This document shows positions 1 through 15,575 of a DNA stretch of 18,627 bases, piece by piece. Positions within the stretch are counted from its first letter, which is position 1. Every line of letters begins with the position of its first letter. Origin of the DNA: Candidatus Krumholzibacteriota bacterium (GTDB taxonomy: Bacteria > Krumholzibacteriota > Krumholzibacteriia > LZORAL124-64-63); NCBI GenBank assembly GCA_039714075.1, contig JBDLKA010000071.1:1-18627 (forward strand), written 5' to 3'. The notes below the pieces were generated by a model. That model was not told the DNA's origin. It made no database searches and worked only from the letters and a program-made list of their open reading frames with translations. The position numbers were made by a program, and so were the translations under genes.

Positions 1-3000
1 GTCAGCTTGCCCACCCGTTTCTGATCCCCGGCCCCGAACATGTAGAAATACACTCCCGAAGCTGTGACCTGCCCGCCGGCGTCGCGCCCGTCCCAAACCT
101 GTTTGTGGCTGCCGTTCACGTAAGGACTCTCGTCCAGCAACCTGCGCACCAACCGCCCCTGCAGATCGTAGATGTCGAGCGATACATCCATGGCCCGGGG
201 CAGCTCGAACGCGATCGTGGTCGAGGGATTGAACGGGTTGGGATGGGCGTAGACCGCCACCTGCCGGATACCAGGGATGCCCGGTGCATCGCTGACGCCA
301 TCGGCGCCCAGCCAGACCAGCAGGAAATTCAGTAAATCGGCCCGGGGTGAGAACACGCTGGCGCTCTTGGCGGATCCAGGGGCCAGGCCGCTCACCCGCT
401 CAAGGTCAAACGGCAGCACGGTGGTGCGGTTGCCCAGGATCTGGTCGTCTACGGTCAGCACGGCAGCGTAGGTTCCGCCGGGCGTTCCTTCCGGATCCAG
501 GGTGGCGCTGGTCTGGCCGGTAAGGCCCGGGCTGATGGCGTCGAACCTCCTGACCTCGGGACAACCGGAGTCCACCAGCCATTGGACGCCCTCCGGCAGT
601 ATGCCGTTACCGGGCACGGGCGAAATCTGAAGATCCCAAACGCCTCCGTTGAATTCGGAGATATCATCGTGTTGGAGCCCGACACCCAACCGGTCCATCA
701 GAAGGTATCCATCATTTCCACCTTTTGGGCCAACTAGGCCGGTGCACAGGCCGTCGCCGGCAAACAGAGCCTGTTTCCCGCCCGTGTCGAGCCAGTCGGA
801 AACGAGCTTGGCGTCATTGGATTCGGGCTCTCCCGAAAGAGTGACATGGCTCCGGGTCCCCGTGGTCAGGAGCATGGTCTGGTAATCGGCCAGGTGGGCG
901 ACCTTGGCGATGGCGCCGAGACCTATGCCATAGCCATGTAGTTGGTAGCGTACCGCCATGGCATCGTAATCCACACCCCGCTCGAAACCCAGTTCATGCA
1001 AGGCGTCATACCATACGGCCGCCGCTTCGGGATCACCCGTACTGTCGTAAAAAAGAAGGGAGGGTTGGGTGAACTGCCCGGGCACCGGTTGCGTGAGCGT
1101 GGGCAAAGCGCGAGCCTCGACCCTGCGGGGATAGGAAGAGCCGGGGGTGAAGTCCAGCACGGCCGTGGTGTCCGGCGGCCAGACCGAAGTGCGCAGGTCG
1201 CCGGCGAGGTCGCCGGTGGCGGTGATGTAGTAGCGCAACCGGTCGCCGGGGAAAAACCAGCCGGTATCCGGCAGGTCGAAGGACCACTGGTTTTCCAGCG
1301 GGGTGCCGGATCCATTATCAATCATGCCGCCGCTGATCATGCCGCGCAGAATTCCCTGGCCGTTCGGCGCGCCGGGTCGCACCGAGTCAAAGGTGGGATT
1401 GCACTCCATCACCCAGTGCAGGGACGGCGGATCGGGCACGGTGGCGCCTTGGCGCAAGGGGGTCACCTGGGCGGTCAGGGAATCGCCGATGGTTGGAACG
1501 CCCAGGACGCTTTTTATGCCCGCCATGTCCACCCGGCACCAATTCTCGACGAGGTTTGTCGGGTCAAAAGTTTCCTGTTCGGGAAAGGCATCCCCGAAAA
1601 GGTTGTTTTCCTTGACCAGGATCTCCGGCCCGTCGGGCGCCCAGACCCTCATGGTCACATTATCGAAATAGGGCGCGGGCGTGCCGTTGAGGCCGGTCCA
1701 GTTCCACATCCAACCCATTTCGTTGACGCCCAGGGCAATCTGGACCCACTGACGATCGGCCACCAGCAGGTCGCTCACGGGTTCGATGTGCCGCTTGTAA
1801 TCAGGGTCGCCGTAGAACACGAAATTGCGGCTTGTCCAAGAGGCGAGTTCGAGATCGGCGGGGTCGGGGCTGGCTGTCGACCGCACATGCCACAAATAGA
1901 ACACGCCGGGCGAATCCGCGAACAGTTGCTCGTGCACGTAGACATCAAAAGACAGCTCGGCTCCGTCGGTGCCGGGCAGCCAGGGCAAAGGCGGCGAAAC
2001 TACCTGGTTTTCAATGAACCAACCACTTGGGTCGTTTTCCAACAGTCCACCGGTATTGTTGACGATCCAGCCACCGGGATCGTAGCACCAGGTGATGCAT
2101 GGAGTGCCGCCGGTTCCGGGCACCACCACGCCGTCGTCGACGAAGTTCACCTGATAGGTGTTGTTGTCCTGGCAGGGGTCGATGTCGCCCAGATCGTTGC
2201 GCAGGTTGGTGAAATCCCCGACGGCCAAGGGTTCGGCGTGGGTCCAGTTGACGGGGCTGCCGGGCTCGAAATCGTCGAAGGTGATCAGGGAATCGTCGAA
2301 GAATACCGCGATGTCGTCGATGCGGGCCGCGCCGTGACCGGGTCCGGGCGTCTTGCAGTCCACGTCGTCATAGGCGCCGTCGGACCAGACGCGCCACCAC
2401 AAGCGCACCTCGTCGCCGTCTGGGCCGGAGTACTCAGCCGGGGAAAGCACGGTGGTGAAATCCAGAGTGTCCACGGCGCCGCCGGTACCTGTCCAGGTGG
2501 CCAGCATGTCCGGGTATTCTCCCCTTTGGACGAAAAATTCAAGAAAATCCCAATCCGCGTCGGTGAGATCGTAATTCATGAACCCGGTCAGCCGGACTGT
2601 GACCGGTTGGGAGGTATCGGCCACCGCGTGCCGCCATTCGAGGTCGTCGAACCAATTGTGACCGTAGCCCCCGATGGTGTCGGGCGGATCACAGGCGGGA
2701 ATGGTCTCATCGACGCAGTTCATGGCGAAGTTGCCGGGACCGTGTCCGCCCAGGTTTTCGGCCCAGTAGGTGGAAATGTGCCAGTGGTTGCCCGAGGGGG
2801 TGTTCAGGTCCTCGTGGGTCCAGCCCTGCCAGTCGGGCAGGCCGCCGGCGGTTTCGAAGCTGCCGTCCAAACTGCCGGGGCCGCCCATGATGTAGAGGGT
2901 GTCGACCAGGGCTTTGGTCGACGGGGCCGGGAATCGAACCCACGGCGTGGGGCCGTCATGGGGCTGGGGTCCGCCAACAATGGGATCGGGCCGGGCATGG

Positions 3001-3056
3001 GCGGACTGGGCGAGAAAAGCTGATAATACGAGGGAAATAACGGCTACGTATCGCAT
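1..3056 (-). CDS. Large secreted protein (>1018 aa, 3' end beyond window) with Sec signal peptide and C-terminal FlgD-Ig / T9SS type A-like sorting domain
   Basis: Translated by hand from ATG at 3056 (GAGG just upstream): MRYVAVISLVLSAFLAQSAHA-RPDP..., open without a stop to the window edge. It ends ...AHPNPFNPSTTIAFELPRAMDVSLDIYDLQGRLVRRL...VWDGRDAGGQVTASGVYFYMF...KRVGKL, the typical FlgD-Ig C-terminal motif. Not in the ORF track because the stop lies outside the window. Confidence 0.92.
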   Translation of the reverse strand, partial: MRYVAVISLVLSAFLAQSAHARPDPIVGGPQPHDGPTPWVRFPAPSTKALVDTLYIMGGPGSLDGSFETAGGLPDWQGWTHEDLNTPSGNHWHISTYWAENLGGHGPGNFAMNCVDETIPACDPPDTIGGYGHNWFDDLEWRHAVADTSQPVTVRLTGFMNYDLTDADWDFLEFFVQRGEYPDMLATWTGTGGAVDTLDFTTVLSPAEYSGPDGDEVRLWWRVWSDGAYDDVDCKTPGPGHGAARIDDIAVFFDDSLITFDDFEPGSPVNWTHAEPLAVGDFTNLRNDLGDIDPCQDNNTYQVNFVDDGVVVPGTGGTPCITWCYDPGGWIVNNTGGLLENDPSGWFIENQVVSPPLPWLPGTDGAELSFDVYVHEQLFADSPGVFYLWHVRSTASPDPADLELASWTSRNFVFYGDPDYKRHIEPVSDLLVADRQWVQIALGVNEMGWMWNWTGLNGTPAPYFDNVTMRVWAPDGPEILVKENNLFGDAFPEQETFDPTNLVENWCRVDMAGIKSVLGVPTIGDSLTAQVTPLRQGATVPDPPSLHWVMECNPTFDSVRPGAPNGQGILRGMISGGMIDNGSGTPLENQWSFDLPDTGWFFPGDRLRYYITATGDLAGDLRTSVWPPDTTAVLDFTPGSSYPRRVEARALPTLTQPVPGQFTQPSLLFYDSTGDPEAAAVWYDALHELGFERGVDYDAMAVRYQLHGYGIGLGAIAKVAHLADYQTMLLTTGTRSHVTLSGEPESNDAKLVSDWLDTGGKQALFAGDGLCTGLVGPKGGNDGYLLMDRLGVGLQHDDISEFNGGVWDLQISPVPGNGILPEGVQWLVDSGCPEVRRFDAISPGLTGQTSATLDPEGTPGGTYAAVLTVDDQILGNRTTVLPFDLERVSGLAPGSAKSASVFSPRADLLNFLLVWLGADGVSDAPGIPGIRQVAVYAHPNPFNPSTTIAFELPRAMDVSLDIYDLQGRLVRRLLDESPYVNGSHKQVWDGRDAGGQVTASGVYFYMFGAGDQKRVGKL

Positions 3057-3209
3057 GGCGACCTCTTTTTTTGAGCGAAACAGAGGGATTGCGAAACAAA
3101 TTAGTAGTCAATCGTAGTTGGATATCAGTGTACGAAATTGGGGTGGAAAAATCCACCAAATAGGTATGGTATTAATTAAACAGCACAGTTGTAATCCAGA
3201 ATATTTATT

Positions 3210-4538
3210 TCAATCTCCGGTTTTTTCCAAAAGCAAAAGCGTCTCGATATGGCTGGTCTGAGGGAACATATCCAATACCTGCAACCGCTTGGCCTGATAG
3301 CCCTCGGCCGTGAAAGCGGCCGCGTCGCGGGCCAGGGTGGCCGGATCGCAGCTCATGTACAGCAGGTGGCGCGGCTTGATGTCGAGCAGGGTTTTGACCC
3401 CGTCTTTGCCCAGACCGGTGCGCGGGGGATCCACCAGGCAGAAACTCGCGTCCCACAGCGCGGGGGGCGCCAGATCGGGCTGGGCCAGGATCTTGGCCAA
3501 ACGACCGGAATACACCCTTGCCTTGTCCTTGGCCGCTTCACTGCGTTTGACGTTGTTTTCGGCGTCGCGGCAGCCACTCTGATCGCTGTCGATGGCCACC
3601 ACCTTCTCGAACAGGTCCGCCAGCGCCAGGGTGAACAGACCCACGCCGCAGAACAGATCCCCCAGCATGACTCCCAGCTTGCCGTCGTCCTTCAATTCGG
3701 TGATCCAGGTCCGGATCACGGACAGCGCCTCTTCGGTCATGGCGTGGTTGCCCTGGAAAAAGCTCTGGGCGCCCACGCGGTACTTGTGCCCGGCGATCTC
3801 GTGGATCAGATAGTCGCGGCCCCACAGGGGCAGATTGTTGAACAGCAGGCCTTTGCAGCCAGGCGCCGGGGGCTCGCCCTCGGGCAGCGCGGCCAGGACC
3901 TTGCGCATGACCTTCAGGCGCTGGGACGGTCCGAAGACGGAAACCAGCCAACCGCCGTGGCCGTCCATCCGGACGACGATCTGTTCGGCCGGCGGCAGCA
4001 TGCGCAGCCAAGGCAGGATGTCGCGGTTGAACTGTTCGGGCATCACCGCGCAGTTTTCGAAGGGCACCACCTCGTGGGTGCCGCGGCGCATCAGGCCGTA
4101 ATGATTGACGGGATTGGAAAAAACGCGGATCCGGTTACGGTAGCCCAGTTCCACTCCGGCCTCCGGGCCGGTCAGCAGTTCGGAGACATCCATCTTGCCC
4201 AGGCGTCCGAAGCAGTCGGTGACGATGGCGGCCTTGGCGCGGCGCTGGTGTTCCGGATCAAGATGCATCAGATCGCATCCCCCGCATTGCCCGTAATAGG
4301 GGCAGGGCGGGTCCTGGCGGCCGGTTCCCGGATCCAGGATTTCTGCCACGGTCGCGCGGGCGAATCCCCGGCGGCGTTCTTTCACCGCGACCCGCACCCG
4401 GTCTCCGGGGGCGGTCAGGGGTACGAAAATCGCTTCGCCCTCGTGACGGGCCAGTCCATCGCCGCCGGTGACCAGCTTTTCGATGGTGACTTCGAGGACT
4501 TCGGATTCCGCTGATTTGTCTGGATGCTTGTCATTCAT
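3210..4538 (-). CDS. rlmD: 23S rRNA (uracil-C5)-methyltransferase, RlmD/RumA family (TRAM + Fe-S + SAM domain)
   Basis: TRAM domain (IEKLVTGGDGLAR...FVPLTAPGD), CPYYGQCGGC plus a later Cys (Fe-S ligands), YRNR, SFFQGN, DLFCGVG, DPPRTG, YMSCDPATLARD, DMFPQTSHIE. Confidence 0.93.
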   Translation of the reverse strand: MNDKHPDKSAESEVLEVTIEKLVTGGDGLARHEGEAIFVPLTAPGDRVRVAVKERRRGFARATVAEILDPGTGRQDPPCPYYGQCGGCDLMHLDPEHQRRAKAAIVTDCFGRLGKMDVSELLTGPEAGVELGYRNRIRVFSNPVNHYGLMRRGTHEVVPFENCAVMPEQFNRDILPWLRMLPPAEQIVVRMDGHGGWLVSVFGPSQRLKVMRKVLAALPEGEPPAPGCKGLLFNNLPLWGRDYLIHEIAGHKYRVGAQSFFQGNHAMTEEALSVIRTWITELKDDGKLGVMLGDLFCGVGLFTLALADLFEKVVAIDSDQSGCRDAENNVKRSEAAKDKARVYSGRLAKILAQPDLAPPALWDASFCLVDPPRTGLGKDGVKTLLDIKPRHLLYMSCDPATLARDAAAFTAEGYQAKRLQVLDMFPQTSHIETLLLLEKTGD

Positions 4539-4646
4539 GGTCCGCTTAAACTAGCATGGGGGTGGTCCCGGGGCCAGAAATCTGAATGGCCGGGTCCGAT
4601 TGGAAGAGTTTGCCCGATGGCCGGCAGCCCCAAAGGAACGGATTCC

Positions 4647-5321
4647 GTGGCGGGTATCAAATTGAAAAGCATCCCGGTGTTGGGTATCTTCGCCTCTGTT
4701 TTGGCGGGAGTGCTCCTGACCGGGTGTACCCCCAAGCGGGTCTTGCGGAGGGACCCCGCCCCTGTGCCCGTGCCGGAGGCGGAACCGGCCTCGGCTCCGG
4801 TCCAGGAGGAATACGCGTCCGAAAGACCGCCGGGTGAACCGGATTTGAGTCTGCCGGAGCCGGAATTCCGGGGTGCCACGGGAACATCGTCATTGGAAAC
4901 GTCCTCCGCCAACCCGCCGGGCACGCCCGCCGCGCAGCCCCCGTCGGGATCATCCCTGGGCCTGGCGGCCGCGGCTCTGGCCGAAAAGCAATTGGGCAAA
5001 CCGTACCAGTGGGGTGCTTCGGGACCCGAAAAGTTCGATTGCAGCGGCCTGGTCATGTACGTCTTTGACAATCTGGGGGTCAAACTGCCCCGGGTCTCGG
5101 GCCAGCAGGCCTACGCGGGGGTCCACGTGGACCGCGAGGATCTGCAGCGTGGCGACCTGGTGTTTTTCAAGTTGACCGGCTCCCGGATCGACCACGTGGG
5201 CATCTATGTGGGCCACAGCAAATTCATTCACGCTCCGCGCAAGCACGTTCCTGTGAGCACGGAAAGTCTGAACAATTCCTATTGGCGGCGGCGATTCAAG
5301 GGGGGCCGGCGCCTGAAATGA
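4647..5321 (+). CDS. NlpC/P60 (C40) cell-wall peptidase lipoprotein with Pro/Glu-rich linker
   Basis: Probable GTG start at 4647 after AAAGGA (ATG 4617 is an alternative). Lipobox LLTG-C. C-terminal GKPYQWGASGPEKFDCSGL...LPRVS...GDLVFF...HVGIYVG...FIHAP with Cys-His-His triad. Confidence 0.92.
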   Translation: MAGIKLKSIPVLGIFASVLAGVLLTGCTPKRVLRRDPAPVPVPEAEPASAPVQEEYASERPPGEPDLSLPEPEFRGATGTSSLETSSANPPGTPAAQPPSGSSLGLAAAALAEKQLGKPYQWGASGPEKFDCSGLVMYVFDNLGVKLPRVSGQQAYAGVHVDREDLQRGDLVFFKLTGSRIDHVGIYVGHSKFIHAPRKHVPVSTESLNNSYWRRRFKGGRRLK

Positions 5322-6820
5322 AGGATTCGTTTTTGACCGTCCGCAATTCCCAAAAAAGAGATAGCCGGTCGGCCGGACCAGGCCCCCTTGCCGTGGCCCT
5401 GGTACTGGGGATGGTGCTGTTCGCCATGTGCGGCGGCCCGGCGCGGGCCCAGAACCCGCCCGGAAACGGCTTCGGGACCACAGCCCAGGCAGCGGAAGAT
5501 TCCCTGGACGCCGGCACGGAAAGTTACTGGGGCCCGGTGCCCGCCCATCACGACAGCGTTTCGGCCCTGCTGGTGAAGCGCTCGCGGGGTGCCTGGGAAA
5601 CCGCGGTGATGGTGCCCTACTGGGTCGTCGGCGTTCCCTTCCGCGTCGTGTACCTGGGGATCGACCAGACCGTCATCGGCATGGACAAACTGGGGCTGTT
5701 CGGCGCGGCCGCGGAACATCCGGGCATCAAGGGTCCGTTCGACACCTACCTGATGCCCGTGGTTTCCATCGGCGACGTGGAGGGCTTCACCCTGGGCCTG
5801 GATGTCACCCGCTTCGATTTTCTGGGTCCGGGCAACATGCTGTTCATCCAGGGGTCCCGGTCCACCCGCAAGGCCGACGAACTGTCCGGCGGCACCCTGT
5901 TCCACCTGGGAAAAAGCTGGACCGTGCAGGCCGGCGGCGGGGTCGAGGAAAAGAACCTGATCCGGTATTACGGGTTGGGGCCCGACTCGATCTACGGCGA
6001 CCTGTCCTACTATCATCGCACCACCACCTGGGGCGGACTCGAGGTGGAAAAGAATGTCGGCAGGAAAATCGGGCTGGAACTGCGCTCCTATTTTTCCCAG
6101 GTCGAGGCCGTCGAGCCGGTCTACGAAATCCATCGGTCCCTGGCCAAGATCCACTCCGGAAACATCCCCTTCGGATACCCCGGCCAATCCAACGGCTGGA
6201 CCATGCGCCTGGCCCTGTACCGCGACAACGCCGACCAGCGCGGCCGGCCCCGCAGCGGCGGGTTCCAGTCGCTGGGCGTTTCGCTTTTCGAGGCCAGCGA
6301 CGGCAGCCGGCTGCGGTACCTCACCTATCACGCCAACCTGGAAAAATACTTATCCCTCTGGCACACCGACCGGACCCTGGCCCTTCGGGCTTTCGTCAAT
6401 CGCATCTCCAATTCCGGCCCGGTGGAGATTCCGTTCAACCGTTTGGTGACCTTTCAGCGCCCCGACGAACTGCGCGGTTTCAATTCACTGCGCTTCTACG
6501 GGATGGGCTCGGTGGGCATGTCGGCGGAGTACCGCTGGCCCGCCTGGGTGGCCCGCGGCCGTAACGACATGGGGGTGGACGCCTATGTCTTTTCGGATAT
6601 CGGCCAGGTGTATGACCGGACGGCGGAAATCAGCATGGATCATATGAAGTTCACCGGCGGGGCGGGCCTGCGCCTGGTGAATTCGGACCGGGGTTTCGCC
6701 GCCCGGTTCGAAGTGGGGTTCAGCAGCGAACAGACGGTCGTCAGGCTGAAGTTCAGCCAGACGTTCCAGTACGACCCGAAAGGCATTCTCTATGGCAAGA
6801 ACCCGACCAAGGTTTACTGA
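5318..6820 (+). CDS. Omp85 (BamA/TamA superfamily) outer-membrane beta-barrel protein without apparent POTRA domains
   Basis: ATG at 5318 overlaps the upstream TGA (ATGA). Signal peptide ending PARA-Q. Alternating beta-strand pattern. Omp85 hallmarks: LRGF (L6 VRGY-like, DELRGFNSLRFYG), SAEYRWP, FSDIGQVY, GGAGLRL. Confidence 0.85.
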   Translation: MKDSFLTVRNSQKRDSRSAGPGPLAVALVLGMVLFAMCGGPARAQNPPGNGFGTTAQAAEDSLDAGTESYWGPVPAHHDSVSALLVKRSRGAWETAVMVPYWVVGVPFRVVYLGIDQTVIGMDKLGLFGAAAEHPGIKGPFDTYLMPVVSIGDVEGFTLGLDVTRFDFLGPGNMLFIQGSRSTRKADELSGGTLFHLGKSWTVQAGGGVEEKNLIRYYGLGPDSIYGDLSYYHRTTTWGGLEVEKNVGRKIGLELRSYFSQVEAVEPVYEIHRSLAKIHSGNIPFGYPGQSNGWTMRLALYRDNADQRGRPRSGGFQSLGVSLFEASDGSRLRYLTYHANLEKYLSLWHTDRTLALRAFVNRISNSGPVEIPFNRLVTFQRPDELRGFNSLRFYGMGSVGMSAEYRWPAWVARGRNDMGVDAYVFSDIGQVYDRTAEISMDHMKFTGGAGLRLVNSDRGFAARFEVGFSSEQTVVRLKFSQTFQYDPKGILYGKNPTKVY

Positions 6821-8534
6821 AAAACTATCTTGGTTGGCCCTGCTGGGCCTGGTGTTCGCCTTGCCGGCGGTCCCGGGGCCGGCCTTTGCCCGGGAACCCC
6901 TGCGTGACGAACCGGTGGTCTGGTACGCGGAAGACCGGGAACCGATTCCCGTCCCGGAATTCCAGGAGCCGGGCCTGGTGCCCTACGCGGTCGACTCGTT
7001 CGTGGGCCGGCCGTTTTCCCGTTTCTGGCACCCGGGCCGTTTTTTCCGCTGGGTGGGCACCGGCGATCGGGCACCCGAAGCGGGGGACATCAATTCCCTG
7101 GACGAAGTGGTCAACTCGACCTGGTTCACCAACCGGATCGGTCTGGCGCCGCTGACCCGGGCCGAGCTTGCCGAAGGTTCCGCCCACGGGCGCGATCTGG
7201 CCGCCGGCCCCGACCGCAGTGCTCCGTGGACCATCGTCGGCGCCAAGACCGCCGGGGTGACGCCCGGTTTCCGGATCAAGGACGCCAAAGGCGATGTCTG
7301 GCTGCTGAAGTTCGATCCCCCGTCCCATCCGGGCATGACCATCCGGTCGGGCGTGGTGACCAGCCTGCTGTTTCACGCCATCGGTTTCCATGTGCCGGTG
7401 GACCGGTTGGTGACATTCTCCCGCGCGGACCTGGTGGTGGGCGAGGGCGCCATGATGCGCCTGCAGCGCGTGGGCGAGGTGCCCATGACCGAGGCGAATC
7501 TTGATTCGGTCCTCACGGCCACCGGCTCCATCTTCGGCGGCGAGTACCATGCCCTGGCCAGCCGGTATCTGGACGGGAAACCCCTCGGACCGTTCGACGA
7601 CCAGGGAATGCGCCGGGACGATCCCAACGATACGATCCATCACCAGGACCGCCGCGAACTGAGGGCCCTGCAGGTGTTCGGGGCCTGGGTCAACCACTTC
7701 GACACCAAGATGCACAACTCGCTGGACATGTACGAGGGCGAACCCGGGCAAGGTCACGTCCGGCATTACCTGATCGATTTCGCTTCCACGCTGGGCGCCT
7801 TCGGCGATACGCCGGTCAAGCGGTTCGGTTTTGAATACGGGTTTGATGTTTTTCCCATCACGGGCCGCACCCTGACCCTTGGCCTGGTGGAGGATGACTG
7901 GGTTCCCCTGGAACGGCCCGAGGGTCTGGACGAAGTGGGTCTGTTCGACGTGGCCAACTTCGAAGCCGACGGATGGAAACCCGATCTGCCCCACAGCGCC
8001 ATGGCCGACATGACCGCCCGGGATGGTTACTGGGCGGCGAAAATCCTGTCGGCCTTCACCGACGAAGACCTGCGCCTCATCGTCGGGCAGGGTCACTATC
8101 AGAATCCGGCCGCCGTGGATTTCCTGGTTGAGACCCTGGCCGGCCGCAGGGACAAGATCGTGCGGCACTGGTTCGGGAAAATTCCTCCCCTCGATTTTTT
8201 CACCCTGACGGCTGCGGGCCTGGCCTTCCACGATCTGGCCGTCGAAAGAGGATATGCCGACACGGACAGTCCCCGGTATCGGTACCGGATGTCCACCGTG
8301 AACAGCGACCGTGGACAGGACGACGAAGGCTGGACTCCCTGGCGGGAGACAACCGCTACTTTGGTGCCCCTGTTCGATGAAGCCGGGCGTTTGGCGGCCG
8401 ACGTTCCGCCGGGCGGAGCCGAGTACCCGTTCCTGGCCGTCGAGGTGCAGGTCGACCACGGCGCCGGGTGGAGCCGCTCGACCACCGTTTACGGAGCCTA
8501 TGCCTCGGGCCGCCTGGTGGCCCTGGATCGATGA
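6792..8534 (+). CDS. Exported protein with atypical protein-kinase-like fold (HipA/PI3K/CotH-like motif spacing), 580 aa
   Basis: Signal peptide (LSWLALLGLVFALPAVPGPAFA-R). Gly-rich GAKTAGVTPG, beta3-like WLLK173FD, catalytic-loop-like NHFD304TKMHN309 (DxKxxN), Mg-binding-like YLID329F. Overlaps the Omp85 gene by 29 nt. The CDS is secure; the kinase call is motif-based. Confidence 0.75.
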   Translation: MARTRPRFTEKLSWLALLGLVFALPAVPGPAFAREPLRDEPVVWYAEDREPIPVPEFQEPGLVPYAVDSFVGRPFSRFWHPGRFFRWVGTGDRAPEAGDINSLDEVVNSTWFTNRIGLAPLTRAELAEGSAHGRDLAAGPDRSAPWTIVGAKTAGVTPGFRIKDAKGDVWLLKFDPPSHPGMTIRSGVVTSLLFHAIGFHVPVDRLVTFSRADLVVGEGAMMRLQRVGEVPMTEANLDSVLTATGSIFGGEYHALASRYLDGKPLGPFDDQGMRRDDPNDTIHHQDRRELRALQVFGAWVNHFDTKMHNSLDMYEGEPGQGHVRHYLIDFASTLGAFGDTPVKRFGFEYGFDVFPITGRTLTLGLVEDDWVPLERPEGLDEVGLFDVANFEADGWKPDLPHSAMADMTARDGYWAAKILSAFTDEDLRLIVGQGHYQNPAAVDFLVETLAGRRDKIVRHWFGKIPPLDFFTLTAAGLAFHDLAVERGYADTDSPRYRYRMSTVNSDRGQDDEGWTPWRETTATLVPLFDEAGRLAADVPPGGAEYPFLAVEVQVDHGAGWSRSTTVYGAYASGRLVALDR

Positions 8535-8547
8535 ATAAAGGAAGCCG

Positions 8548-9927
8548 ATGAATCACGATCATGACACCGGCCGGCCGACCATCCTGGTCCGGACCCTGCG
8601 CCTGTTCGCCCCGGTCCGCGAGGGCGAAGGCGGCACGGTGCTGCTGATGGCCCTGAACGTGTTTCTGCTGTTGACCGCCTACTACATCATCAAGCCCGTG
8701 CGCGAGGCGCTGATTCTTTCGGAGTGGGGGGCGGAGGCCAAGATCTACGCCTCGGCCGGACAGGCGCTCCTGTTGCTGGGCGTGATCCCTCTTTACAGCC
8801 GCCTGGCCGACCGGATGAACGTGCGCCGCCTCATCGCCACGGTGCTGGTGTTTTTCGCCGCCTGCCTGGTGGCTTTCTACCTGTTGGCCCTGATCCGGGT
8901 CCCGCTGGGGATTCCCTTCTATCTGTGGGTGGGAATTTTCAACATGATGGTGGTGGCCCAGTTCTGGTCTTTCGCCAACGACTACTACACCGAAGAGCAG
9001 GGCAAGCGGCTGTTCGCCATCATCGGGTTCGGCATGTCCGCCGGCGCCGTGTTCGGCGGGTTCATCACCAAGAAACTGATCAACCCCCTGGGGCTTTACC
9101 AACTGATGCTGCTGTCGGCCGCCCTGCTGATCGTCAGTCTTGTGCTGACGGTGGCCGCGGCCAATCGCCGGAAACGAGCCGGCCGGGTTTCGACGGATCG
9201 CCCCCCAGTGGAAGAAGACGGGATGGAAGGGCCCGGCGGGTTCGCCCTGGTCCTGAAGAACCGCTACCTGCTGCTGATCGCGGTGATGATGATCCTGGCG
9301 AATCTGGTCAACACCACCGGCGAATACATCCTGGGGGCCAAGGTCAAGGACGGGAGCGAGCAGGCGGTGGCTGAAGTCGTCCGGACCTCCGGCATGAGCG
9401 ACGTTGCTTTCAGCGCCGCCGTGGTCGAGCGGCAGGCCGAAGTGGGCCGGTCCATCGGCGATTTCTATGCCGGGTTCTTCGCGATCGTGAACCTGGTCGG
9501 ATTGCTGACCCAGCTTTTCCTGGTGTCGCGCATCGTTCGCTGGCTGGGAGTGAACCGGGCCCTGATGATCCTGCCCCTGGTGGCCACGGGCGGTTACATC
9601 CTGATGGCCCTGTTCCCGGTTCTGGGGGTGGCCCGCTGGTCCAAGACCGCCGAGAATTCCACCGACTATTCCCTGCAGAACACCGTCCGCAACATGCTCT
9701 TTTTGCCCACCACGCGGGCCGAGAAATTCAAGGCCAAGCAGGCCATCGATGCTTTCTTTGTCCGCGCGGGGGATGTTTTTGCCGCGCTTCTTGTCCTGGG
9801 CGGCACCACGCTTGTTGGTTTAGCTCCTCGTGGATTTGCTCTTGTTAATGTTGGGATAGCTCTTCTCTGGGTGGTGCTGGCCTGGTTCATTGGTCGGCGG
9901 TACCTCCTCTTGTCCCGGGCTGGATAA
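8548..9927 (+). CDS. Npt/Tlc-type NTP/NDP exchange transporter (AAA family ATP:ADP antiporter homologue, MFS-like fold)
   Basis: About 12 hydrophobic segments. Family motifs YYIIKPVREAL, FYLWVGIFN...QFWSFAND...KRLF, DYSLQNTVRNMLFLP...KFKAKQAID..FVRAGD. AAAGGA RBS; starts 13 nt after the kinase-like gene. Confidence 0.88.
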   Translation: MNHDHDTGRPTILVRTLRLFAPVREGEGGTVLLMALNVFLLLTAYYIIKPVREALILSEWGAEAKIYASAGQALLLLGVIPLYSRLADRMNVRRLIATVLVFFAACLVAFYLLALIRVPLGIPFYLWVGIFNMMVVAQFWSFANDYYTEEQGKRLFAIIGFGMSAGAVFGGFITKKLINPLGLYQLMLLSAALLIVSLVLTVAAANRRKRAGRVSTDRPPVEEDGMEGPGGFALVLKNRYLLLIAVMMILANLVNTTGEYILGAKVKDGSEQAVAEVVRTSGMSDVAFSAAVVERQAEVGRSIGDFYAGFFAIVNLVGLLTQLFLVSRIVRWLGVNRALMILPLVATGGYILMALFPVLGVARWSKTAENSTDYSLQNTVRNMLFLPTTRAEKFKAKQAIDAFFVRAGDVFAALLVLGGTTLVGLAPRGFALVNVGIALLWVVLAWFIGRRYLLLSRAG

Positions 9928-10073
9928 CGCTTCCGCCAAGCCCCCTTCCCGTTATGAATAATCCGGGATGTCCTCGTCGCGGCCCTTCGGGCCGCTTCCT
10001 GCGGATTACCCGGATTATTCATAACGGGAAGGAAGCTTGGCACAAGGGTTGCCCTTCCCGGGACAAGAGGAGG
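9903..10073. repeat. Long imperfect palindrome (element 1) spanning the transporter stop codon, with conserved hairpin core
   Basis: Perfect arms 9944-9967/10009-10032 (24 bp), 9935-9941/10035-10041 (7 bp) and 9903-9919/10057-10073 (17 bp, left arm inside the CDS), all on the same axis. Inner hairpin GCGGCCC-TTC-GGGCCGC. Confidence 0.93.
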
Positions 10074-10312
10074 ATCACGGGTCAAAGAAACAGGTGCCTC
10101 CCAAGAGATTGAACCCCGAACCAAACAAGCGCACAAGCTGAGCAAAAACAACAGGTTGTGTTGTTTGTAGGGGTTGAGCGCAGGGGAAAAGAAGGAACTT
10201 TTAAGATCCCCCTGCGGCAAAAAAACGAAAAAGGGCGGATGACGAGCGGCCAATTTCCTGCCGGGCGGGGAAGAAATGCCGCGGGAATCGGAACAGAACA
10301 CGGAGGATGACG

Positions 10313-10813
10313 ATGGCTCCCGAATGCGCAGTTGCAACCATGGCCCAGGCCGGAAAATACCTTTCGTTCCGGCTGGATGACGAGGAATACGGCCTGGAAA
10401 TTCTCAAGGTCCAGGAAATCGTCAGCGCTGCCGGTATCAACGAATTTCCCCGGAATCCTGAAAATGTGCGGGGCCGGATCCGTTTGCGGAGCCGGGATAT
10501 TCCCGTGATCGACATGCGGGGGGTGTTCGGGTTGAAGGCGGTGCTGGAATCGGAAAAGAGCTGCATCATCATCGCCCAGGTTTCCCTGGGGAGTGAATTG
10601 ATCACCATGGGTCTGCTGGTGGACGAGGTTTGCGACGTGCTGAACATCGCCGCGGAGGAAATCCAGTTTCCCCCCACCTGGGCCGGCGGCATGGAAGGCT
10701 CCGACTTCATCAACGGTTTGGGAAAGCTGGAGGACAGGGACGTCATCCTGCTGGAAAGCGAAAAAATCTTCAGCGAGGAAGAACTCAAGGCCGTCGTCCT
10801 GTGGGACGATTAG
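10313..10813 (+). CDS. cheW: Chemotaxis adaptor CheW
   Basis: GKYLSFRLDDEEYGLEILKVQEI...IPVIDMR..FG...CIII...MGLLVDEVCDVLNI...FINGLGK. GGAGG RBS 6 nt before ATG 10313. Confidence 0.92.
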   Translation: MAPECAVATMAQAGKYLSFRLDDEEYGLEILKVQEIVSAAGINEFPRNPENVRGRIRLRSRDIPVIDMRGVFGLKAVLESEKSCIIIAQVSLGSELITMGLLVDEVCDVLNIAAEEIQFPPTWAGGMEGSDFINGLGKLEDRDVILLESEKIFSEEELKAVVLWDD

Positions 10814-10862
10814 AATCCGGTAAGGTAATTACCGTCAACCCATTAAAGAAACGGGTCTTGTT

Positions 10863-11732
10863 GTGACAGTCCGCAACGACATTCTGGCCAAGGTGCGCAC
10901 GATTCCCTCCATGCCTTCGGCCGTGGTCAAGCTCAAGCAATACCTGAGCGATCCCGACGTCAGCTTCGACGAGCTGGCGAAGGTCATAGAATTCGATCCC
11001 GGCTTGACGGCGAACCTGTTGCAGTTGGCCAATTCGGCCTACTTCGGCTGGTCGGGCCACATCAAGACCGTGAAGGAAGCCGTCACCCGGCTGGGCACCA
11101 ACCGCATCTTCCAGATGGTGTTGTGCATGTCGGTGGCTCCCCTGGTGCGCAAACCGGTCAAGGGTTACGACATGGGGTCGAACGGCCTGTGGCACCACTC
11201 CATCGCCACGGCCATCTGCGCCGAACAGCTTGCCGGGACCCTGGATTTTTCCAATCCCGAAGAGGCGTTCACCGCGGGCCTGCTCCACGACATGGGCAAG
11301 ATCCTGCTGGGAACGTTCGTGGAGATCGACGACGAACCCATCAAGAACCTGGTCGAGAACGAAAGCCTGTCCTTCAACGAGGCCGAGCGCCGGGTGCTGG
11401 GAATCGATCACGCCGAAGCGGCGGCCGAACTGCTGCAGTACTGGAAACTGCCGGAGAACGTGGTAGCCGCGGCCAGATGGCATCACGATCCCGACCAGGC
11501 CGATGAAAAACACCGTGACATCGTGGACCTGGTCCATGTGGCGGATATTCTCTGCATCAGGATGGGCTGGGGCATCGGAACCGACGGCCCGTTGTACTGC
11601 CTGAACAACGAAGTGGAAGAACGGCTGGGAGTGGACGCCCAGGTGGAAGACATCGTGACCGACAAGGTGGGCGCCGCCATCGACGATCTTCAGGGGATTC
11701 TGCAGGGCAAACCGGAGCCCGTGCTCAGCTGA
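10863..11732 (+). CDS. Stand-alone HDOD domain protein
   Basis: IPSMPSAVVKL, DPGLTANLLQLANSAYFG, LWHHSIATA, AFTAGLLHDMGK, ERRVLGIDHAE, WKLPE, WHHDP. Confidence 0.92.
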   Translation: MTVRNDILAKVRTIPSMPSAVVKLKQYLSDPDVSFDELAKVIEFDPGLTANLLQLANSAYFGWSGHIKTVKEAVTRLGTNRIFQMVLCMSVAPLVRKPVKGYDMGSNGLWHHSIATAICAEQLAGTLDFSNPEEAFTAGLLHDMGKILLGTFVEIDDEPIKNLVENESLSFNEAERRVLGIDHAEAAAELLQYWKLPENVVAAARWHHDPDQADEKHRDIVDLVHVADILCIRMGWGIGTDGPLYCLNNEVEERLGVDAQVEDIVTDKVGAAIDDLQGILQGKPEPVLS

Positions 11733-11744
11733 CCGGACCGGCGG

Positions 11745-12974
11745 CTACTCGCCGCCGATTTTCACCACCACCGCCTCATTCACCGCTTCACGGACGGCTT
11801 CGTCCAATTCCATTTTCGAGGAAAACTTCAGAAGGTCCATGGCCCGGGCGGTCAGTATGGGCTTGGGCGAGCGGATGGAGCAGCAGTCCCGGTAGGGCAG
11901 GATCGACGTGCCGAAGGCCCCGATCTTCTTGGACCAGGCGGTGATCTCCATCTTGTCCATGCCGATCAACGGCCGCAGGATGGGCAGTTCCACATCCGAA
12001 CTGATGGCGCCCAGGTTGTGCATGGTCTGGCTGGCCACCTGGCCCAGGCTGTCGCCGGTGACCAGGCCCAGGCAGCTGTTGCGACGTGCCAGGCGGACCG
12101 CAGTTTTCACCATGAACCGGCGGAACATGACCATGTCGTAGCTGTCGGAAATCACCCCGATGGCTCTCATCTCGTAGGGAACCACCGGTACCAGGAACAG
12201 CTTCAACGGCACCGGCGAAAACCGCGCCAGGATTTCCACCAGTTCCTTGATCTTGTCGACATCGGCTTCGGCGACGTTGCGGCCCGCATAGAAGTGGACG
12301 AAGTCGGGCCGGCTGCCGCGCCGCATCATCAGCCAGGCGGCCACGGGCGAATCGATGCCGCCGGACAACAGGACCATGGTGCGCCCGCTCGAACCGAAGG
12401 GCAGCCCGCCCCAGGCGGGTTCCTTGCCGGTGAAAACCAGTACGTTCTCTTTCAGGACCAGCACGTTCACCGTAAGTTCGGGCCGGCTCATTTTTCCCGG
12501 CAGCCCCGTGCACTGGTGCACGGCCGCGCCCACGATGCGGCTGACCTCCGGCGACTTCAGGCCGAAGCCGCGGTCGCTGCGGCGGGTCTCGACCTTGAAG
12601 TTGGCCGCCGTGCCCTGGTTTTCGCGCGCCAGCTCACAGGCTGTCCGGCAGATTCCGTCCAGAACGGGTTCGCGGTCGTTTTCCAGGTCGTCGCGCAGGG
12701 CGGGATCGATCTCGCCGCGCGGCACCGTCACCACCGGCGACATCCACTGTAGACCGAACACGTTCCGCAGTTTGGCCGTCACCTCCGGGGCGCGGGCCGG
12801 ATCGGTCAGGTAGACCAGCAGCCGGCTTTCCACGTGCCTGATCGCCTCGACCGGTTCGCCCTTGAGTGCCGCGTTCATGTTGTTGATCAGCTTGCGCAAA
12901 AACATCTTGCGGTTGCGGCCCTTCAGGGCGATTTCCGCGTAGGCGCAGGCGATGATGGGGGTGGCCAGGGCCAT
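11745..12974 (-). CDS. thiI: tRNA 4-thiouridine synthase ThiI (THUMP + PP-loop, no rhodanese domain)
   Basis: YAEIALKGRNR, THUMP (FKVETRRSD), GGLP.GSSG, LLSGGIDSPVA, TGDSLGQVASQT, RPLIGMDK, SILPYRDCC. Start placed at ATG 12974 because of an upstream GGAG; 13010 is an alternative. Confidence 0.93.
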   Translation of the reverse strand: MALATPIIACAYAEIALKGRNRKMFLRKLINNMNAALKGEPVEAIRHVESRLLVYLTDPARAPEVTAKLRNVFGLQWMSPVVTVPRGEIDPALRDDLENDREPVLDGICRTACELARENQGTAANFKVETRRSDRGFGLKSPEVSRIVGAAVHQCTGLPGKMSRPELTVNVLVLKENVLVFTGKEPAWGGLPFGSSGRTMVLLSGGIDSPVAAWLMMRRGSRPDFVHFYAGRNVAEADVDKIKELVEILARFSPVPLKLFLVPVVPYEMRAIGVISDSYDMVMFRRFMVKTAVRLARRNSCLGLVTGDSLGQVASQTMHNLGAISSDVELPILRPLIGMDKMEITAWSKKIGAFGTSILPYRDCCSIRSPKPILTARAMDLLKFSSKMELDEAVREAVNEAVVVKIGGE

Positions 12975-13106
12975 GACGACTCCGGGGGCTTGATTCTCCG
13001 AGTGATCCATGTATTCTGCTGTCTGCTGTTCCCATGCAGAATCTAACAGGAGTGGTTTGGGGCGCAAGAGCGCGTTACCGGCCGTTAGCGGCAAAAGGAC
13101 ATTACG

Positions 13107-14402
13107 ATGGTCGAAAGCGGCGGCATCAAGCTGGACATTTCGGGGCTGGACGGATTCCTGCGGCCCGGCGAGTTGGAGGCCATGGCCCCGCGGGTGGCGG
13201 CCGCCGCGGCCACGCTGGAAAACGGGACCTGCCCCGGCGCGGATTTCCTGGGCTGGCTCGATCTGCCCGCGCGCATCTCCGACGCCGACCTGACCGCGAT
13301 CGAATCCGCGGCCGACCGGGCCCGCCGGGACACCGCCAGTTACGTGGTGATCGGCATCGGCGGCTCTTACCTCGGCGCGCGGGCCGTCCTGGAGGCGCTG
13401 GGCGGCCCGGCTTCCGGCTGTCCCGAAATCCTTTTCGCCGGGACGGGATTGTGCTCGGCCACCCTGGACCGGTTGCTGACCCGGGTGCGGAAGCGGGATT
13501 TTCGCCTGTGCGTGATCTCGAAATCCGGCACAACCCTGGAACCCGCGGTTGCCTTCCGGCTGCTGCGCGGCGAGCTGGAAAAAAAATACGGTCGGGCCGG
13601 GACAGCGGAACGGATCACCGCCGTGACCGACGCCAAGCGGGGCGCGCTACGCGGGCTGGCCGAGGCCGAAGGTTTCGAAACCCACGTCATTCCCGATGAT
13701 GTGGGCGGACGATTTTCCGTCCTCACTCCGGTGGGCCTGGTGCCCTTGGCTGTCGCGGGCGTGGATATCCGGGGACTGGTGGCCGGCGCCCGGGCCATGC
13801 GCGATGCCTGCCTTTCCAGCGACCTGACCGCCAATCCCGCCCACCTCTACGCCGCGGCCCGCAATCTTCTTTACGAAAAGGGTTTTCTCAACGAGGTCAT
13901 GAGCACTTTCCACGGCGATCTGCAGATGTTGCAGGAGTGGTGGAAGCAGCTTTTCGGCGAGAGCGAGGGGAAAAACGGGCAGGGCATCTTTCCGGCCTCG
14001 ACGGTTTTCACCACCGATCTGCACAGCCTGGGCCAGTACATCCAGGACGGCCGCCGCAACCTTCAGGAAACCTTCCTGTGCGTGCGGAGCGGGGTCGGCG
14101 GCCTGACGGTGCCGGGCCAGGACCCGGGCGATCTGGACGGCCTCAACTACCTGGGCGGCCGGAGCCTGGACGATATCAACTGGAAGGCCTACCAGGGGAC
14201 CAGGCAGGCGCATCTGGCCGGGGGAGTTCCCTGCACGAGTTTCGAGGTGGAAACCCTGACGCCCCAGGCAGTTGGCGGGCTGCTCTACCTGTTTGAAAAG
14301 GCCGTGGCGGTGAGCGGTTTGTTGTTGGGAGTCAACCCCTTCGACCAACCGGGGGTGGAAACCTACAAGAAGGAAATGTTCCGCCTGCTGGGTAAATCCT
14401 GA
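13107..14402 (+). CDS. pgi: Glucose-6-phosphate isomerase
   Basis: VIGIGGSYLG, ISKSGTTLEP, DDVGGRFSVLTPVGL, EWWKQLFGESEGK, TDLHSLGQYIQDG, NPFDQPGVETYK. Confidence 0.97.
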   Translation: MVESGGIKLDISGLDGFLRPGELEAMAPRVAAAAATLENGTCPGADFLGWLDLPARISDADLTAIESAADRARRDTASYVVIGIGGSYLGARAVLEALGGPASGCPEILFAGTGLCSATLDRLLTRVRKRDFRLCVISKSGTTLEPAVAFRLLRGELEKKYGRAGTAERITAVTDAKRGALRGLAEAEGFETHVIPDDVGGRFSVLTPVGLVPLAVAGVDIRGLVAGARAMRDACLSSDLTANPAHLYAAARNLLYEKGFLNEVMSTFHGDLQMLQEWWKQLFGESEGKNGQGIFPASTVFTTDLHSLGQYIQDGRRNLQETFLCVRSGVGGLTVPGQDPGDLDGLNYLGGRSLDDINWKAYQGTRQAHLAGGVPCTSFEVETLTPQAVGGLLYLFEKAVAVSGLLLGVNPFDQPGVETYKKEMFRLLGKS

Positions 14403-14430
14403 ACCATACAGGTCTTGATTCACTCGCGGT

Positions 14431-14459
14431 TTGATCTCCCATCAATGACGTTATATTTT
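14431..14459 (+). promoter_or_regulatory. Candidate sigma70 promoter for the lipoprotein gene with overlapping TTGAT-N5-ATCAA palindrome
   Basis: TTGATC (14431-14436), 17 nt, TATTTT (14454-14459). Inverted repeat TTGAT/ATCAA at 14431-14445. Confidence 0.35.
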
Positions 14460-14534
14460 CGACAGGTGATGCGATAATCCCCGGGACCGGATTCCGGTTT
14501 CCCGATGTTTTTCCCCCAGATTGAGGAGAAACCC

Positions 14535-15323
14535 GTGAAGAAGTCAGCCCTTGTCTTCACAGTGATGGCCGTCGTCCTGATGATCGCGGTCGCCGGTTGC
14601 GGCGATAAGAAGGAAACGGCCGAAAGCGCGCCCGCCCCCGCCGCGGATGCGACCACGGCCCAGGCTCCCGCCCAGGCCGCCAACCCCGACATGTGGGAAG
14701 GCACCGTTCTGGAAACCATGAACTCCGGTGGGTACACCTACGTCCACCTCGACACCGGCAGCGAAAAGATCTGGGCCGCCGGTCCGGAAGCCACCGTTTC
14801 GGTCGGCCAGAAAATCGTGATGGACAAGGGCATGGCCATGGGGGAATTCCACGCCAAGTCCCTGGACCGCACGTTCGATCAGATCTACTTCGTCGGCTCC
14901 ATCAAGGGCGAGGGCGAAGCGCCCACCCAGGGAGCGCCCCACGGCGACATGGGTGGAATGAGCTCCCCCGAAGCCGCGTCCCACAGCACCGTGGATAAGG
15001 CCGACATCACTGGTGTCGCCAAGGCCGCCGACGGCTATACGGTCGAGGAGATCTTCACCAAGAGCGCCGAACTTTCCGGCAAGAACGTGAAGGTGCGCGG
15101 CCAGGTCGTGAAGTTCACGCCCAACATCATGGGCACGAACTGGGTGCACATCCAGGACGGCACCGGCAGTGGGCCGACCTCCGATCTTACCGTGACTACC
15201 AGTGCCGTCGTGGCCAACGGGGACATGGTTGTTGTCGAGGGGGCGCTGACGGTCAATAAAGACTTCGGTGCCGGGTACAAGTATGACGCCATTATCGAAG
15301 GTGCTACCGTCACCAAGGAGTAG
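14535..15323 (+). CDS. Lipoprotein with NrfJ-like and OB-fold domains
   Basis: GTG start after GAGGAG. Lipobox IAVAG-C. First domain GTVLETMNSGGYTYV...WAAGP. His/Met linker (PHGDMGGM). Second domain KVRGQVVK..PNIMGTNWVHIQDGTG...KDFGAGYKY. Confidence 0.8.
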   Translation: MKKSALVFTVMAVVLMIAVAGCGDKKETAESAPAPAADATTAQAPAQAANPDMWEGTVLETMNSGGYTYVHLDTGSEKIWAAGPEATVSVGQKIVMDKGMAMGEFHAKSLDRTFDQIYFVGSIKGEGEAPTQGAPHGDMGGMSSPEAASHSTVDKADITGVAKAADGYTVEEIFTKSAELSGKNVKVRGQVVKFTPNIMGTNWVHIQDGTGSGPTSDLTVTTSAVVANGDMVVVEGALTVNKDFGAGYKYDAIIEGATVTKE

Positions 15324-15466: not shown

Positions 15467-15547
15467 AGCACCGCCCTTGATGATGCCGGCATTTGCAACA
15501 TGGCGCACCCAAGGCTCGACCGGTGGCGTCACTTTGACATTCAATGT

Positions 15548-15575
15548 AAAAATCCGAGGTTGGCCTCGGGTTTTT
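15548..15575. terminator. Second bidirectional terminator-like hairpin
   Basis: AAAAATCCGAGG-TTGG-CCTCGGGTTTTT. Confidence 0.6.

Follow-up and report, generated by a model that had tools for sequence, protein, structure and literature searches.

Three tightly coupled genes lie on one strand of an 18,627-nt stretch of DNA from a Candidatus Krumholzibacteriota bacterium (GenBank assembly GCA_039714075.1, contig JBDLKA010000071.1, positions 1 to 18,627; G+C content of about 63%), referred to here as the window. They encode an Omp85-type outer-membrane barrel, an exported protein of 580 residues that likely has a kinase-like fold, and a distant relative of the nucleotide carriers of the TLC/NTT family. 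The explanation that accounts best for the locus and its relatives, and that we hold tentatively, is an envelope module. A barrel devoid of POTRA domains and a Sec-exported, atypical protein-kinase-like enzyme would form its obligate core, and the carrier would provide the enzyme with nucleotide from the inner membrane. The coordinates of the genes and of their main features are collected in Table 1.

The coupling of the three co-directional genes had been described in a sequence-only reading of this DNA, and it is confirmed by the coordinates and by both junctions. The ATG of the kinase-like gene (6792) is located inside the end of the barrel gene, whose stop codon occupies positions 6818-6820, and the two genes overlap by 29 nt. 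The TGA of the kinase-like gene (8532-8534) is separated from the ATG of the carrier gene (8548) by 13 bases that include AAGGAAG. This arrangement is far beyond chance because it recurs in dozens of loci at only 45-65% identity.

The first gene codes for a member of the Omp85 superfamily, of the POTRA-less type referred to as noNterm, as judged from its sequence and its predicted structure. The Omp85 barrel recognized in the sequence-only reading is thereby borne out: the Pfam Omp85 family matches with 40.4 bits for a cut-off of 24, and an AlphaFold model built with 38 homologues (predicted local distance difference test, pLDDT, 80.2; predicted template-modelling score, pTM, 0.70) comprises a signal helix, a low-confidence stretch of about 50 residues, a long helix (residues 104-136, counted from TTG 5282) and 16 strands over residues 155-490. 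With this model, Foldseek returned 114 matches at E<=1e-3, including BamA (7ojf, E 2.5e-12), the barrel of TamA (4n74, target template-modelling score, TMt, 0.70) and Sam50 (7btw, TMt 0.66). The motifs D-E-L-R-G-F and F-S-D-I-G-Q are present, and L-R-G-F and F-x-D-x-G-Q are invariant or nearly so in the 38 homologues (R398, D433, G441 and Q442 invariant, G399 and D439 nearly invariant). The signature motifs of Omp85 proteins are RG-F/Y at the tip of loop 6 and F/G-x-D-x-G on the inner wall of the barrel. That the superfamily has two signature motifs is stated in a published account (PMC4490367). No POTRA domain was found in the Pfam scan or in the model, which rules out the POTRA-bearing class of BamA, TamA and TpsB. 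The NCBIfam BamA equivalogs likewise scored far below their cut-offs (43.8 for 297 and 23.2 for 1050).

The second gene codes for a member of a large family that carries no name. The 580-residue protein matched no family in Pfam, NCBIfam (E<=0.01) or PADLOC. A word-indexed search scored 8000 candidates and identified 4119 related proteins at E<=1e-3, of which those with a name were all 'hypothetical'; in an exhaustive profile search, the count of representative clusters was 3737 for E<=1e-3 and 1227 for E<=1e-30. A cleavable signal peptide had been noticed at its N-terminus, correctly by all sequence indications: residues 12-33 form the one hydrophobic segment of the protein, with R3, R5, R7 and K11 ahead of it and an AxA cleavage site behind it, and an N-terminal hydrophobic stretch is present in 25 of 25 aligned homologues. 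By the usual sequence rules, the protein beyond its signal would thus lie outside the cytoplasm. Several other assignments were tried and rejected. The protein is not a lipoprotein because there is no cysteine at the predicted cleavage site, and the sequence contains no lipoprotein signal. It is not recognizable as a type IX secretion cargo (no Por_Secre_tail or CHU_C in Pfam and no NCBIfam match at E<=0.01) nor as an anti-phage defence protein (no PADLOC match).

Eight longer relatives of the 580-residue protein were checked for fusions. A fusion with an Omp85 or TLC domain, one of the outcomes envisaged in the sequence-only reading, was found in none of these eight. In the 782-residue relative P0209, a signal peptide precedes the kinase-like domain, which is fused to a PAP2 phosphatase domain. 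The active sites of the PAP2 phosphatase family are extracytoplasmic; this fusion adds only a little weight because it is a single sequence on one contig. Another relative is joined to an AMP-binding enzyme, possibly through gene calling. Six forms of about 1160 residues (P0274-P0279) have the kinase-like domain at the N-terminus and an unassigned C-terminal half. In one of them, P0277 (labelled Acidobacteriota), the kinase-like domain is followed by about 600 residues without Pfam family, and in its catalytic loop HxN replaces HxD and R replaces K306.

Sequence and model together make it likely, though they do not prove, that this protein has a kinase-like fold and an intact active site. The model (25 homologues; pLDDT 81.1, pTM 0.85) places after the signal peptide a conserved region of low secondary structure (residues 35-145), a kinase-like core (about 146-465) and a beta-sandwich (about 465-580). 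The core starts with three short strands (146-152, 159-163 and 169-173) and a helix (183-197), followed by further strands and a helical lobe, and this order of elements fits a bilobal kinase. The best Foldseek match is the Hydra Fam20 kinase (5xom, E 1.3e-3, probability 0.98, TM-scores 0.28/0.41), and the other kinase matches include HipT (7ab5), Fam20A, CtkA (3akj, TMt 0.50), PI4KIIalpha (4hnd) and many Hanks kinases. Two matches, a monobody fusion and an FN3 domain at probability 1.00, cover the C-terminal sandwich only; these two aside, the named matches are all kinase folds.

The residues expected of a nucleotide-dependent enzyme occupy kinase-like positions in the model. The sequence K-x-x-G-V-x-x-G-F is situated between strands 1 and 2 and K173 closes strand 3, while the HxDxKxxN loop follows helix 293-300 and D329-F-A follows strand 321-327. 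In the alignment of 25 homologues K152, G155, G159 and K173 are invariant. A broader sample of 151 representatives was drawn from a HMMER search and not selected by motif: K173 is kept in 146 of them, G155 in 143, K152 in 138, D304 in 149, N309 in 144 and D329 in 148, and position 306 is occupied by K in 64 and by R in 62. A family-specific block, D277-D-P-N-D280...H284...R288...R291, is kept in 149-150 of the same 151. Nucleotide-dependent chemistry is favoured because D304, N309, D329 and K173 are retained in 144-149 representatives.

By sequence criteria, the family is nonetheless outside every named kinase family. Membership of the Hanks-type kinases (Pfam Pkinase) was rejected for lack of a Pfam match and of a significant profile comparison, the sole hhalign alignment to Hanks kinases being one that superposes the two catalytic loops. 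Membership of the Fam20, HipA and PI3/PI4 kinase families was rejected as no Pfam or NCBIfam match was obtained at E<=0.01; the relative P0243 matches HipA_2 at E 0.058, below the cut-off. The nearest named Atlas clusters are Fam20C, HipA_2, LepB_N and PI3_PI4_kinase (0.79-0.84), which are leads below the level of evidence.

The third gene codes for a distant but genuine member of the TLC/NTT family on sequence grounds, as the sequence-only reading had proposed when it named the Npt/Tlc transporters. Pfam TLC matches with 53.3 bits for a cut-off of 21, overlapping a match to MFS_1 of 44.9 bits, and about twelve hydrophobic segments are apparent in a hydrophobicity scan. When 32 homologues were combined into a profile, it matched two solved ADP/ATP carriers, 9j3n (E 3.8e-15) and 9j3j (E 4.3e-11), with which it shares the motifs FW-FAN, KR-F/Y and K-x-K-x-K-x-A-I-D; the single sequence reached E 3.7e-5. 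The names given automatically to these proteins are 'AAA family ATP:ADP antiporter', 'Npt1/Npt2 family nucleotide transporter', 'translocase' and 'MFS transporter'. Major et al. (2017, PMC5381601) report that NTT genes are widespread among free-living bacteria, Gemmatimonadetes, Latescibacteria and Fibrobacteres among them, and that every NTT characterized so far stems from a parasite or a plastid. The words 'export' and 'periplasm' do not appear in their article.

The conservation of the three genes was surveyed in related loci. One genome scan with the alignment of the 580-residue family yielded 80 loci with 44-82% identity to the query. The two catalytic motifs served as search patterns, and the scan reaches only relatives that keep both. 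The record titles name Krumholzibacteriota, Eisenbacteria, Gemmatimonadota, Latescibacterota and unclassified metagenome-assembled genomes (MAGs); the relatives have large genomes, with chromosomes of, for example, 2.9-6.5 Mb. Loci were considered to have room for a neighbour when at least 1300 nt of flank were available, which was the case for 71 loci upstream and 67 downstream. The closest locus (L001), whose record title reads Candidatus Krumholzibacteriia, shares nine genes with the window in unchanged order, and the two kinase-like proteins are 82% identical. Immediately 5' of the kinase-like gene, in the same orientation, an Omp85 homologue is encoded in every one of the 71 loci with room and in 76 of all 80; the four without it have at most 36 nt of upstream sequence. 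The barrel and the kinase-like enzyme are therefore regarded as an obligate core.

The association with the carrier is looser. A TLC-family gene is found downstream within the stored flanks in 49 of the 67 loci with room, and a short carrier of the window's type (P0003) is adjacent to the kinase-like gene in 39, L070 included. In seven Gemmatimonadota loci the carrier gene is 1.7-3.3 kb downstream, and in L048 a Ser/Thr kinase gene on the other strand sits between it and the kinase-like gene. Three cases are convergent: in L029 the opposite strand carries a TLC gene of 30% identity, and L039 and L041 have a longer TLC paralogue. Thus the trio anticipated by the sequence-only reading is conserved throughout as regards the barrel and in part as regards the carrier, which appears as a frequent and ancient but dispensable third component, being present in 49 and missing from 18 of the 67 loci. 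In a FastTree phylogeny of 78 kinase-like proteins, from which the short sequences L035, L050 and L074 were omitted, at least 13 changes of carrier state occur and the TLC linkage is spread over the whole tree, so that the link is old and not the quirk of one clade. Two contigs of a single MAG, L007 with an adjacent carrier and L030 without, indicate that one genome can hold two barrel-enzyme pairs and one linked carrier; the pair of L030 is followed by MsrA and SelO genes. Pairwise distances over 39 loci are correlated among the three proteins (r 0.80-0.94; 0.94 for enzyme and barrel, 0.80 for enzyme and carrier), which fits co-inheritance and does not by itself prove interaction.

These observations can be assembled into the following mechanism. 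The barrel and the enzyme would most likely cooperate at the inner face of the outer membrane, where the barrel would hold, position or be acted on by the enzyme. The enzyme, with its apparently complete set of nucleotide-binding and phosphotransfer residues, would need nucleotide outside the cytoplasm. The carrier in the inner membrane would swap cytoplasmic ATP, or another nucleoside triphosphate (NTP), for periplasmic ADP; as an exchanger in a cell with an ATP-rich cytoplasm, it would supply the phosphate donor of the enzyme and recover ADP. The enzyme would then phosphorylate or nucleotidylate an envelope substrate, which could be protein, lipid or glycan. The PI4K, LepB and Fam20 leads and the PAP2 fusion hint weakly at one of the latter two. 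Export of ATP by the translocase was already put forward in the sequence-only reading, and among mechanisms it would fit the sequences best. Its most specific form, a dedicated periplasmic ATP supply in which the antiporter exports ATP and reclaims ADP for a barrel-docked kinase phosphorylating at the outer membrane, is possible and rather doubtful. In the usual view, the Gram-negative periplasm has no ATP supply of its own, and outer-membrane processes draw their energy via trans-envelope machines. The sequence-only reading started from a periplasm generally lacking an ATP pool, a premise that is softer than it was worded: a review reports ATP measured in the periplasm of Escherichia coli, calls its route across the inner membrane unknown and states that E. 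coli has no ATP/ADP translocase (PMC7432876).

Several results weigh against a carrier-fed exported kinase. The kinase-like character ascribed to the 580-residue protein stands as far as motifs and order of elements are concerned, and is less well served by comparison with known proteins: no Foldseek match in the PDB reached E<=1e-3 and the TM-scores were 0.28-0.50; hhalign gave a probability of 0.07% (E 0.72) with 12 Pkinase domains taken from the loci; and the only sequence match in the PDB was a HipA_C protein at E 1.3. As to the carrier, TIGR00769, which describes exchangers of nucleoside tri- and diphosphates, scored 33.6 bits for a cut-off of 387.2, and we know of no NTT that serves export. 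Characterized NTTs import into their own compartment, and an NTT homologue, S. negevensis NTT4, is cited as not transporting nucleotides (both in PMC5381601). Exported ATP would moreover face competition from periplasmic phosphatases and nucleotidases such as those of E. coli (described in PMC7432876). Furthermore, a TLC-family gene is absent from the stored flanks of 18 of the 67 loci with room, and therefore the enzyme either does not depend strictly on the carrier or is served in trans. L003 and L004, 76-77% identical to the window protein and sisters of the carrier-bearing L002 and L005, have CheW after the kinase-like gene instead of a carrier, and the close pairs L057/L060 and L066/L077 are carrier-less too. 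No replacement transporter was found in these 18 loci, whose downstream genes are heterogeneous and mutually unrelated. The catalytic motif is intact in 77 of 81 sequences irrespective of carrier status, the four exceptions being fragments or single changes, none at K173, D304, N309 or D329; this comparison of carrier loss with catalytic residues is uninformative because the loci were fetched by those same motifs.

Among the rival explanations, a secretion or surface display system of the two-partner type would have the barrel move or anchor the enzyme, which would act extracellularly on targets such as neighbouring cells or matrix material, the carrier having a separate task such as nucleotide uptake. 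It would account for the strict order of barrel and then cargo in 71 of 71 loci, and the conserved region 35-145 of the enzyme, poor in secondary structure, could engage the barrel. Fam20 and Helicobacter pylori CtkA, among the best structural matches, are secreted kinases. A role similar to two-partner secretion (TPS) has also been raised for noNterm Omp85s of Leptospira (PMC11358297). However, the window barrel has no POTRA domain and the enzyme has neither a TPS domain nor a beta-helix, Pfam and the model showing instead an alpha/beta kinase-like core with a beta-sandwich. TpsB proteins, for their part, have two POTRA domains. An extracellular kinase would be without a source of ATP, and the linkage of the carrier in 49 of 67 loci would be left unexplained. 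The identity of 45-83% across several candidate phyla and the housekeeping setting are unlike polymorphic effectors, and PADLOC found no match. We consider this explanation unlikely. The system could otherwise serve the uptake of a nucleotide or metabolite, with the barrel as entry pore, the kinase-like protein binding or converting the substrate in the periplasm and the carrier importing it. Scavenging had been named as an alternative in the sequence-only reading, and a 16-stranded barrel without POTRA could serve as a pore, although to our knowledge no Omp85 barrel acts as a nutrient pore. For the NTT family, transport has been shown in the import direction only (PMC5381601), and the second, longer TLC paralogue present in 24 loci suggests a broader transport locus. 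On the other hand, the conserved HxDxKxxN and DFx residues indicate catalysis over plain binding, free NTPs are scarce in soil and sediment, the large genomes are unlike those of energy parasites, and 18 of 67 loci retain the barrel and the enzyme but no carrier. Such an uptake system is quite improbable.

Much the same low credence is given to a role in outer-membrane biogenesis or quality control, where the kinase-like protein would be a non-phosphorylating scaffold or another type of enzyme, and the carrier would be linked by nothing more than common regulation or synteny passed on by descent. The company kept by the module speaks for it: an HtrA/DegP-type protease (14 loci) and membrane Ser/Thr kinases (19 loci) occur in the Gemmatimonadota/Eisenbacteria neighbourhood, and a peptidoglycan endopeptidase neighbours the module in the window's clade. 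The altered catalytic loop of P0277 would suit a non-phosphorylating protein, and the correlated distances of the three proteins are also expected from plain co-inheritance. The retention of D304, N309, D329 and K173 in the 151 representatives is nevertheless hard to explain without nucleotide-dependent chemistry, and the other neighbours lose their synteny within the clade of the window, whereas the carrier is linked across several candidate phyla. The envelope module with a carrier-fed, exported kinase-like enzyme thus remains the explanation that we prefer, and the probability left over after these four readings belongs to others that we have not thought of.

Besides the three genes, the transcription unit of the window probably includes a fourth, since the stop codon of the upstream gene for an NlpC/P60 peptidoglycan endopeptidase overlaps the ATG of the barrel gene in an ATGA arrangement (5318-5321). 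An NlpC/P60 homologue is found upstream in 20 of the 80 loci, all in the window's clade of the 580-residue protein, which is largely labelled Krumholzibacteria; the gene is part of the unit only in this clade, where it suggests a link to the cell wall. The other neighbours of the window behave similarly: RlmD (20 of 80 loci, including one weak distant match in L031) and CheW (16 of 80) are, like NlpC/P60, nearly all confined to the window's clade. Downstream of the carrier gene, a long and almost perfect hairpin has a folding energy of -83.2 kcal/mol and a z-score of -10.1, equalled by none of 200 shuffles; it resembles the mraW RNA of Rfam with 43.7 bits, below the 50-bit threshold, and is followed by a gap of 380 nt and then by CheW. 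It is probably the 3' boundary of the transcription unit, and probably either a terminator or a repeat element. A scan for consensus promoters and terminators gave nothing exceeding the shuffle expectation.

Table 1. Features of the module in the window and of additional genes near it in related loci
Feature	Position	Strand	Basis or remark
NlpC/P60 peptidoglycan endopeptidase, probable lipoprotein	4524..5321	+	Pfam NLPC_P60, E 4e-33; hydrophobic segment 50-68 ending L-T-G-C
Omp85-like barrel gene	TTG 5282 or ATG 5318 to 6820	+	Open reading frame (ORF); Pfam Omp85
Kinase-like protein, 580 residues	6792..8534	+	ORF; no family assigned by Pfam, NCBIfam or PADLOC
Predicted Sec signal peptide of the kinase-like protein, residues 1-34	6792..6893	+	A-F-A|R-E site
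Glycine-rich loop G150-F160 and strand-3-end lysine K173	7239..7310	+	Positions of kinase nucleotide-binding elements
Catalytic-loop-like H302-F-D304-T-K306-M-H-N309 and metal-binding-like D329-F-A-S-T	7695..7790	+	Sequence (HFDTKMHN, LIDFAS)
TLC/NTT-family carrier, 459 residues (Transporter Classification, TC, 2.A.12; related to the major facilitator superfamily, MFS)	8548..9927	+	Pfam TLC; predicted in the inner membrane
Long stable hairpin	9935..10041	+	RNA fold; directly 3' of the carrier stop codon
Longer TLC paralogues	L021 2529-5267; L048 11989-14271; L041 5010-7280	-	Plus 21 further loci
Membrane Ser/Thr kinases	L048 2449-4068 (+), 8696-10546 (-); L070 3683-5524; L076 3962-5629		
HtrA/DegP-type protease	L048 3876-5537; L051 4077-5501	+	Directly upstream of the barrel gene

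Additional genes recur around the module in related loci. The longer TLC-family ORFs of 24 loci (744-951 residues) are often convergent with the short carrier; in a Pfam scan of three of them, two had HEAT repeats and one TLC only. They match the NTT-HEAT class of Major et al. (PMC5381601). In 19 loci of the Gemmatimonadota/Eisenbacteria type, Ser/Thr kinases are encoded that have 5-6 N-terminal membrane segments and a C-terminal Pkinase domain, predicted to be cytoplasmic because basic residues follow the last membrane segment. Their gene is immediately upstream of the barrel gene in L070 and L076, and these kinases may be regulators of the module. The HtrA/DegP-type protease (Trypsin_2 and PDZ domains) forms a BLAST cluster and is located upstream in 14 loci of the Gemmatimonadota/Eisenbacteria branch.

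Elsewhere in the window, positions 3-3056 on the minus strand code for a protein of more than 1018 residues, open at the window edge, whose C-terminus weakly matches FlgD_ig, CHU_C and Por_Secre_tail. These weak matches to type IX sorting domains suggest a type IX secretion system in the organism. Also on the minus strand are a 651-residue protein (16325-18280) with an N-terminal AAA_16/STAND-like ATPase and a C-terminal OmpR-type DNA-binding domain, and a 203-residue ORF (15673-16284) with a weak match to bacterial globins (E 7.8e-7). Two overlapping ORFs of 272 and 298 residues on opposite strands (14505-15440) matched no family.

The locus joins three questions that are all open, namely periplasmic ATP, the NTTs of free-living bacteria and the noNterm Omp85 proteins, in three genes that can be cloned, one of which represents a family of thousands of members without a name. 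The cells of little-studied soil and sediment bacteria may supply ATP outside their cytoplasm. If the carrier does export ATP for the enzyme, extracytoplasmic ATP-dependent phosphorylation would be part of the normal biology of the bacterial envelope, and the NTT homologues of free-living bacteria and the noNterm Omp85s would receive a first physiological role. The module would then be a bacterial counterpart of the kinase system of the eukaryotic secretory pathway. If the carrier does not export ATP, the strict barrel-enzyme pair (71 of 71) would still define a new system of an Omp85 protein and its partner.

The sequence-only reading knew of no characterized system with this composition, and none combining a barrel, an exported kinase-like enzyme and a nucleotide carrier was found in the literature searched. 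Parts of the module do resemble known systems. In two-partner secretion (FhaC/FHA) and in TamA/TamB, an Omp85 barrel gene is likewise accompanied by one dedicated partner gene per operon. The window barrel differs from TpsB and TamA in having no POTRA domain, its partner has no TPS domain or TamB-like fold, and the gene order with a linked nucleotide carrier has no counterpart in TpsB/TpsA or TamA/TamB. The 16-stranded barrel without POTRA is shared with the noNterm Omp85s, a class without an assigned function (Heinz and Lithgow 2014, PMC4104836; PMC11358297 for Leptospira). In contrast with these, the barrel of the window protein is preceded by about 100 additional residues that include a long helix. 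The Leptospira noNterm genes have lipoproteins and adhesin-like proteins as neighbours, and the word 'kinase' does not appear in the article on them (PMC11358297).

The kinase-like protein shows weak structural matches to the group of HipA and PI3/PI4-kinase-like proteins and to H. pylori CtkA. Its HxDxKxxN loop is as in Hanks-type kinases, whereas the HipA pattern differs, and there is no significant sequence match to that group. Unlike the HipA group, it is predicted to be exported, has about twice the length of the core and possesses conserved N- and C-terminal regions of its own. The carrier shares the Pfam TLC family, the motifs and about a dozen hydrophobic segments with Rickettsia Tlc1, Chlamydia Npt1/Npt2 and plastid NTT1 (TC 2.A.12). 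It is shorter than the solved NTT chains (459 compared with 586-610 residues) and far below the cut-off of TIGR00769; in contrast to the characterized NTTs, its hosts have large genomes and are apparently free-living, its gene shares an operon with those of envelope proteins, and net export is proposed for it. The proposed supply of ATP also has a eukaryotic analogue. The ATP/ADP exchanger AXER/SLC35B1 of the endoplasmic reticulum and Golgi feeds the Fam20 secretory kinases. The window carrier belongs to TLC/NTT and not to SLC35, the eukaryotic system has no Omp85 partner, and the 580-residue protein lacks a Pfam Fam20C match and reaches TM-scores of only 0.28/0.41. Nevertheless, Hydra Fam20 (5xom) is its best structural match and Fam20C its nearest named Atlas family, and the two systems would have in common an atypical kinase with a signal peptide, a non-cytosolic compartment and a supply of ATP by an antiporter.

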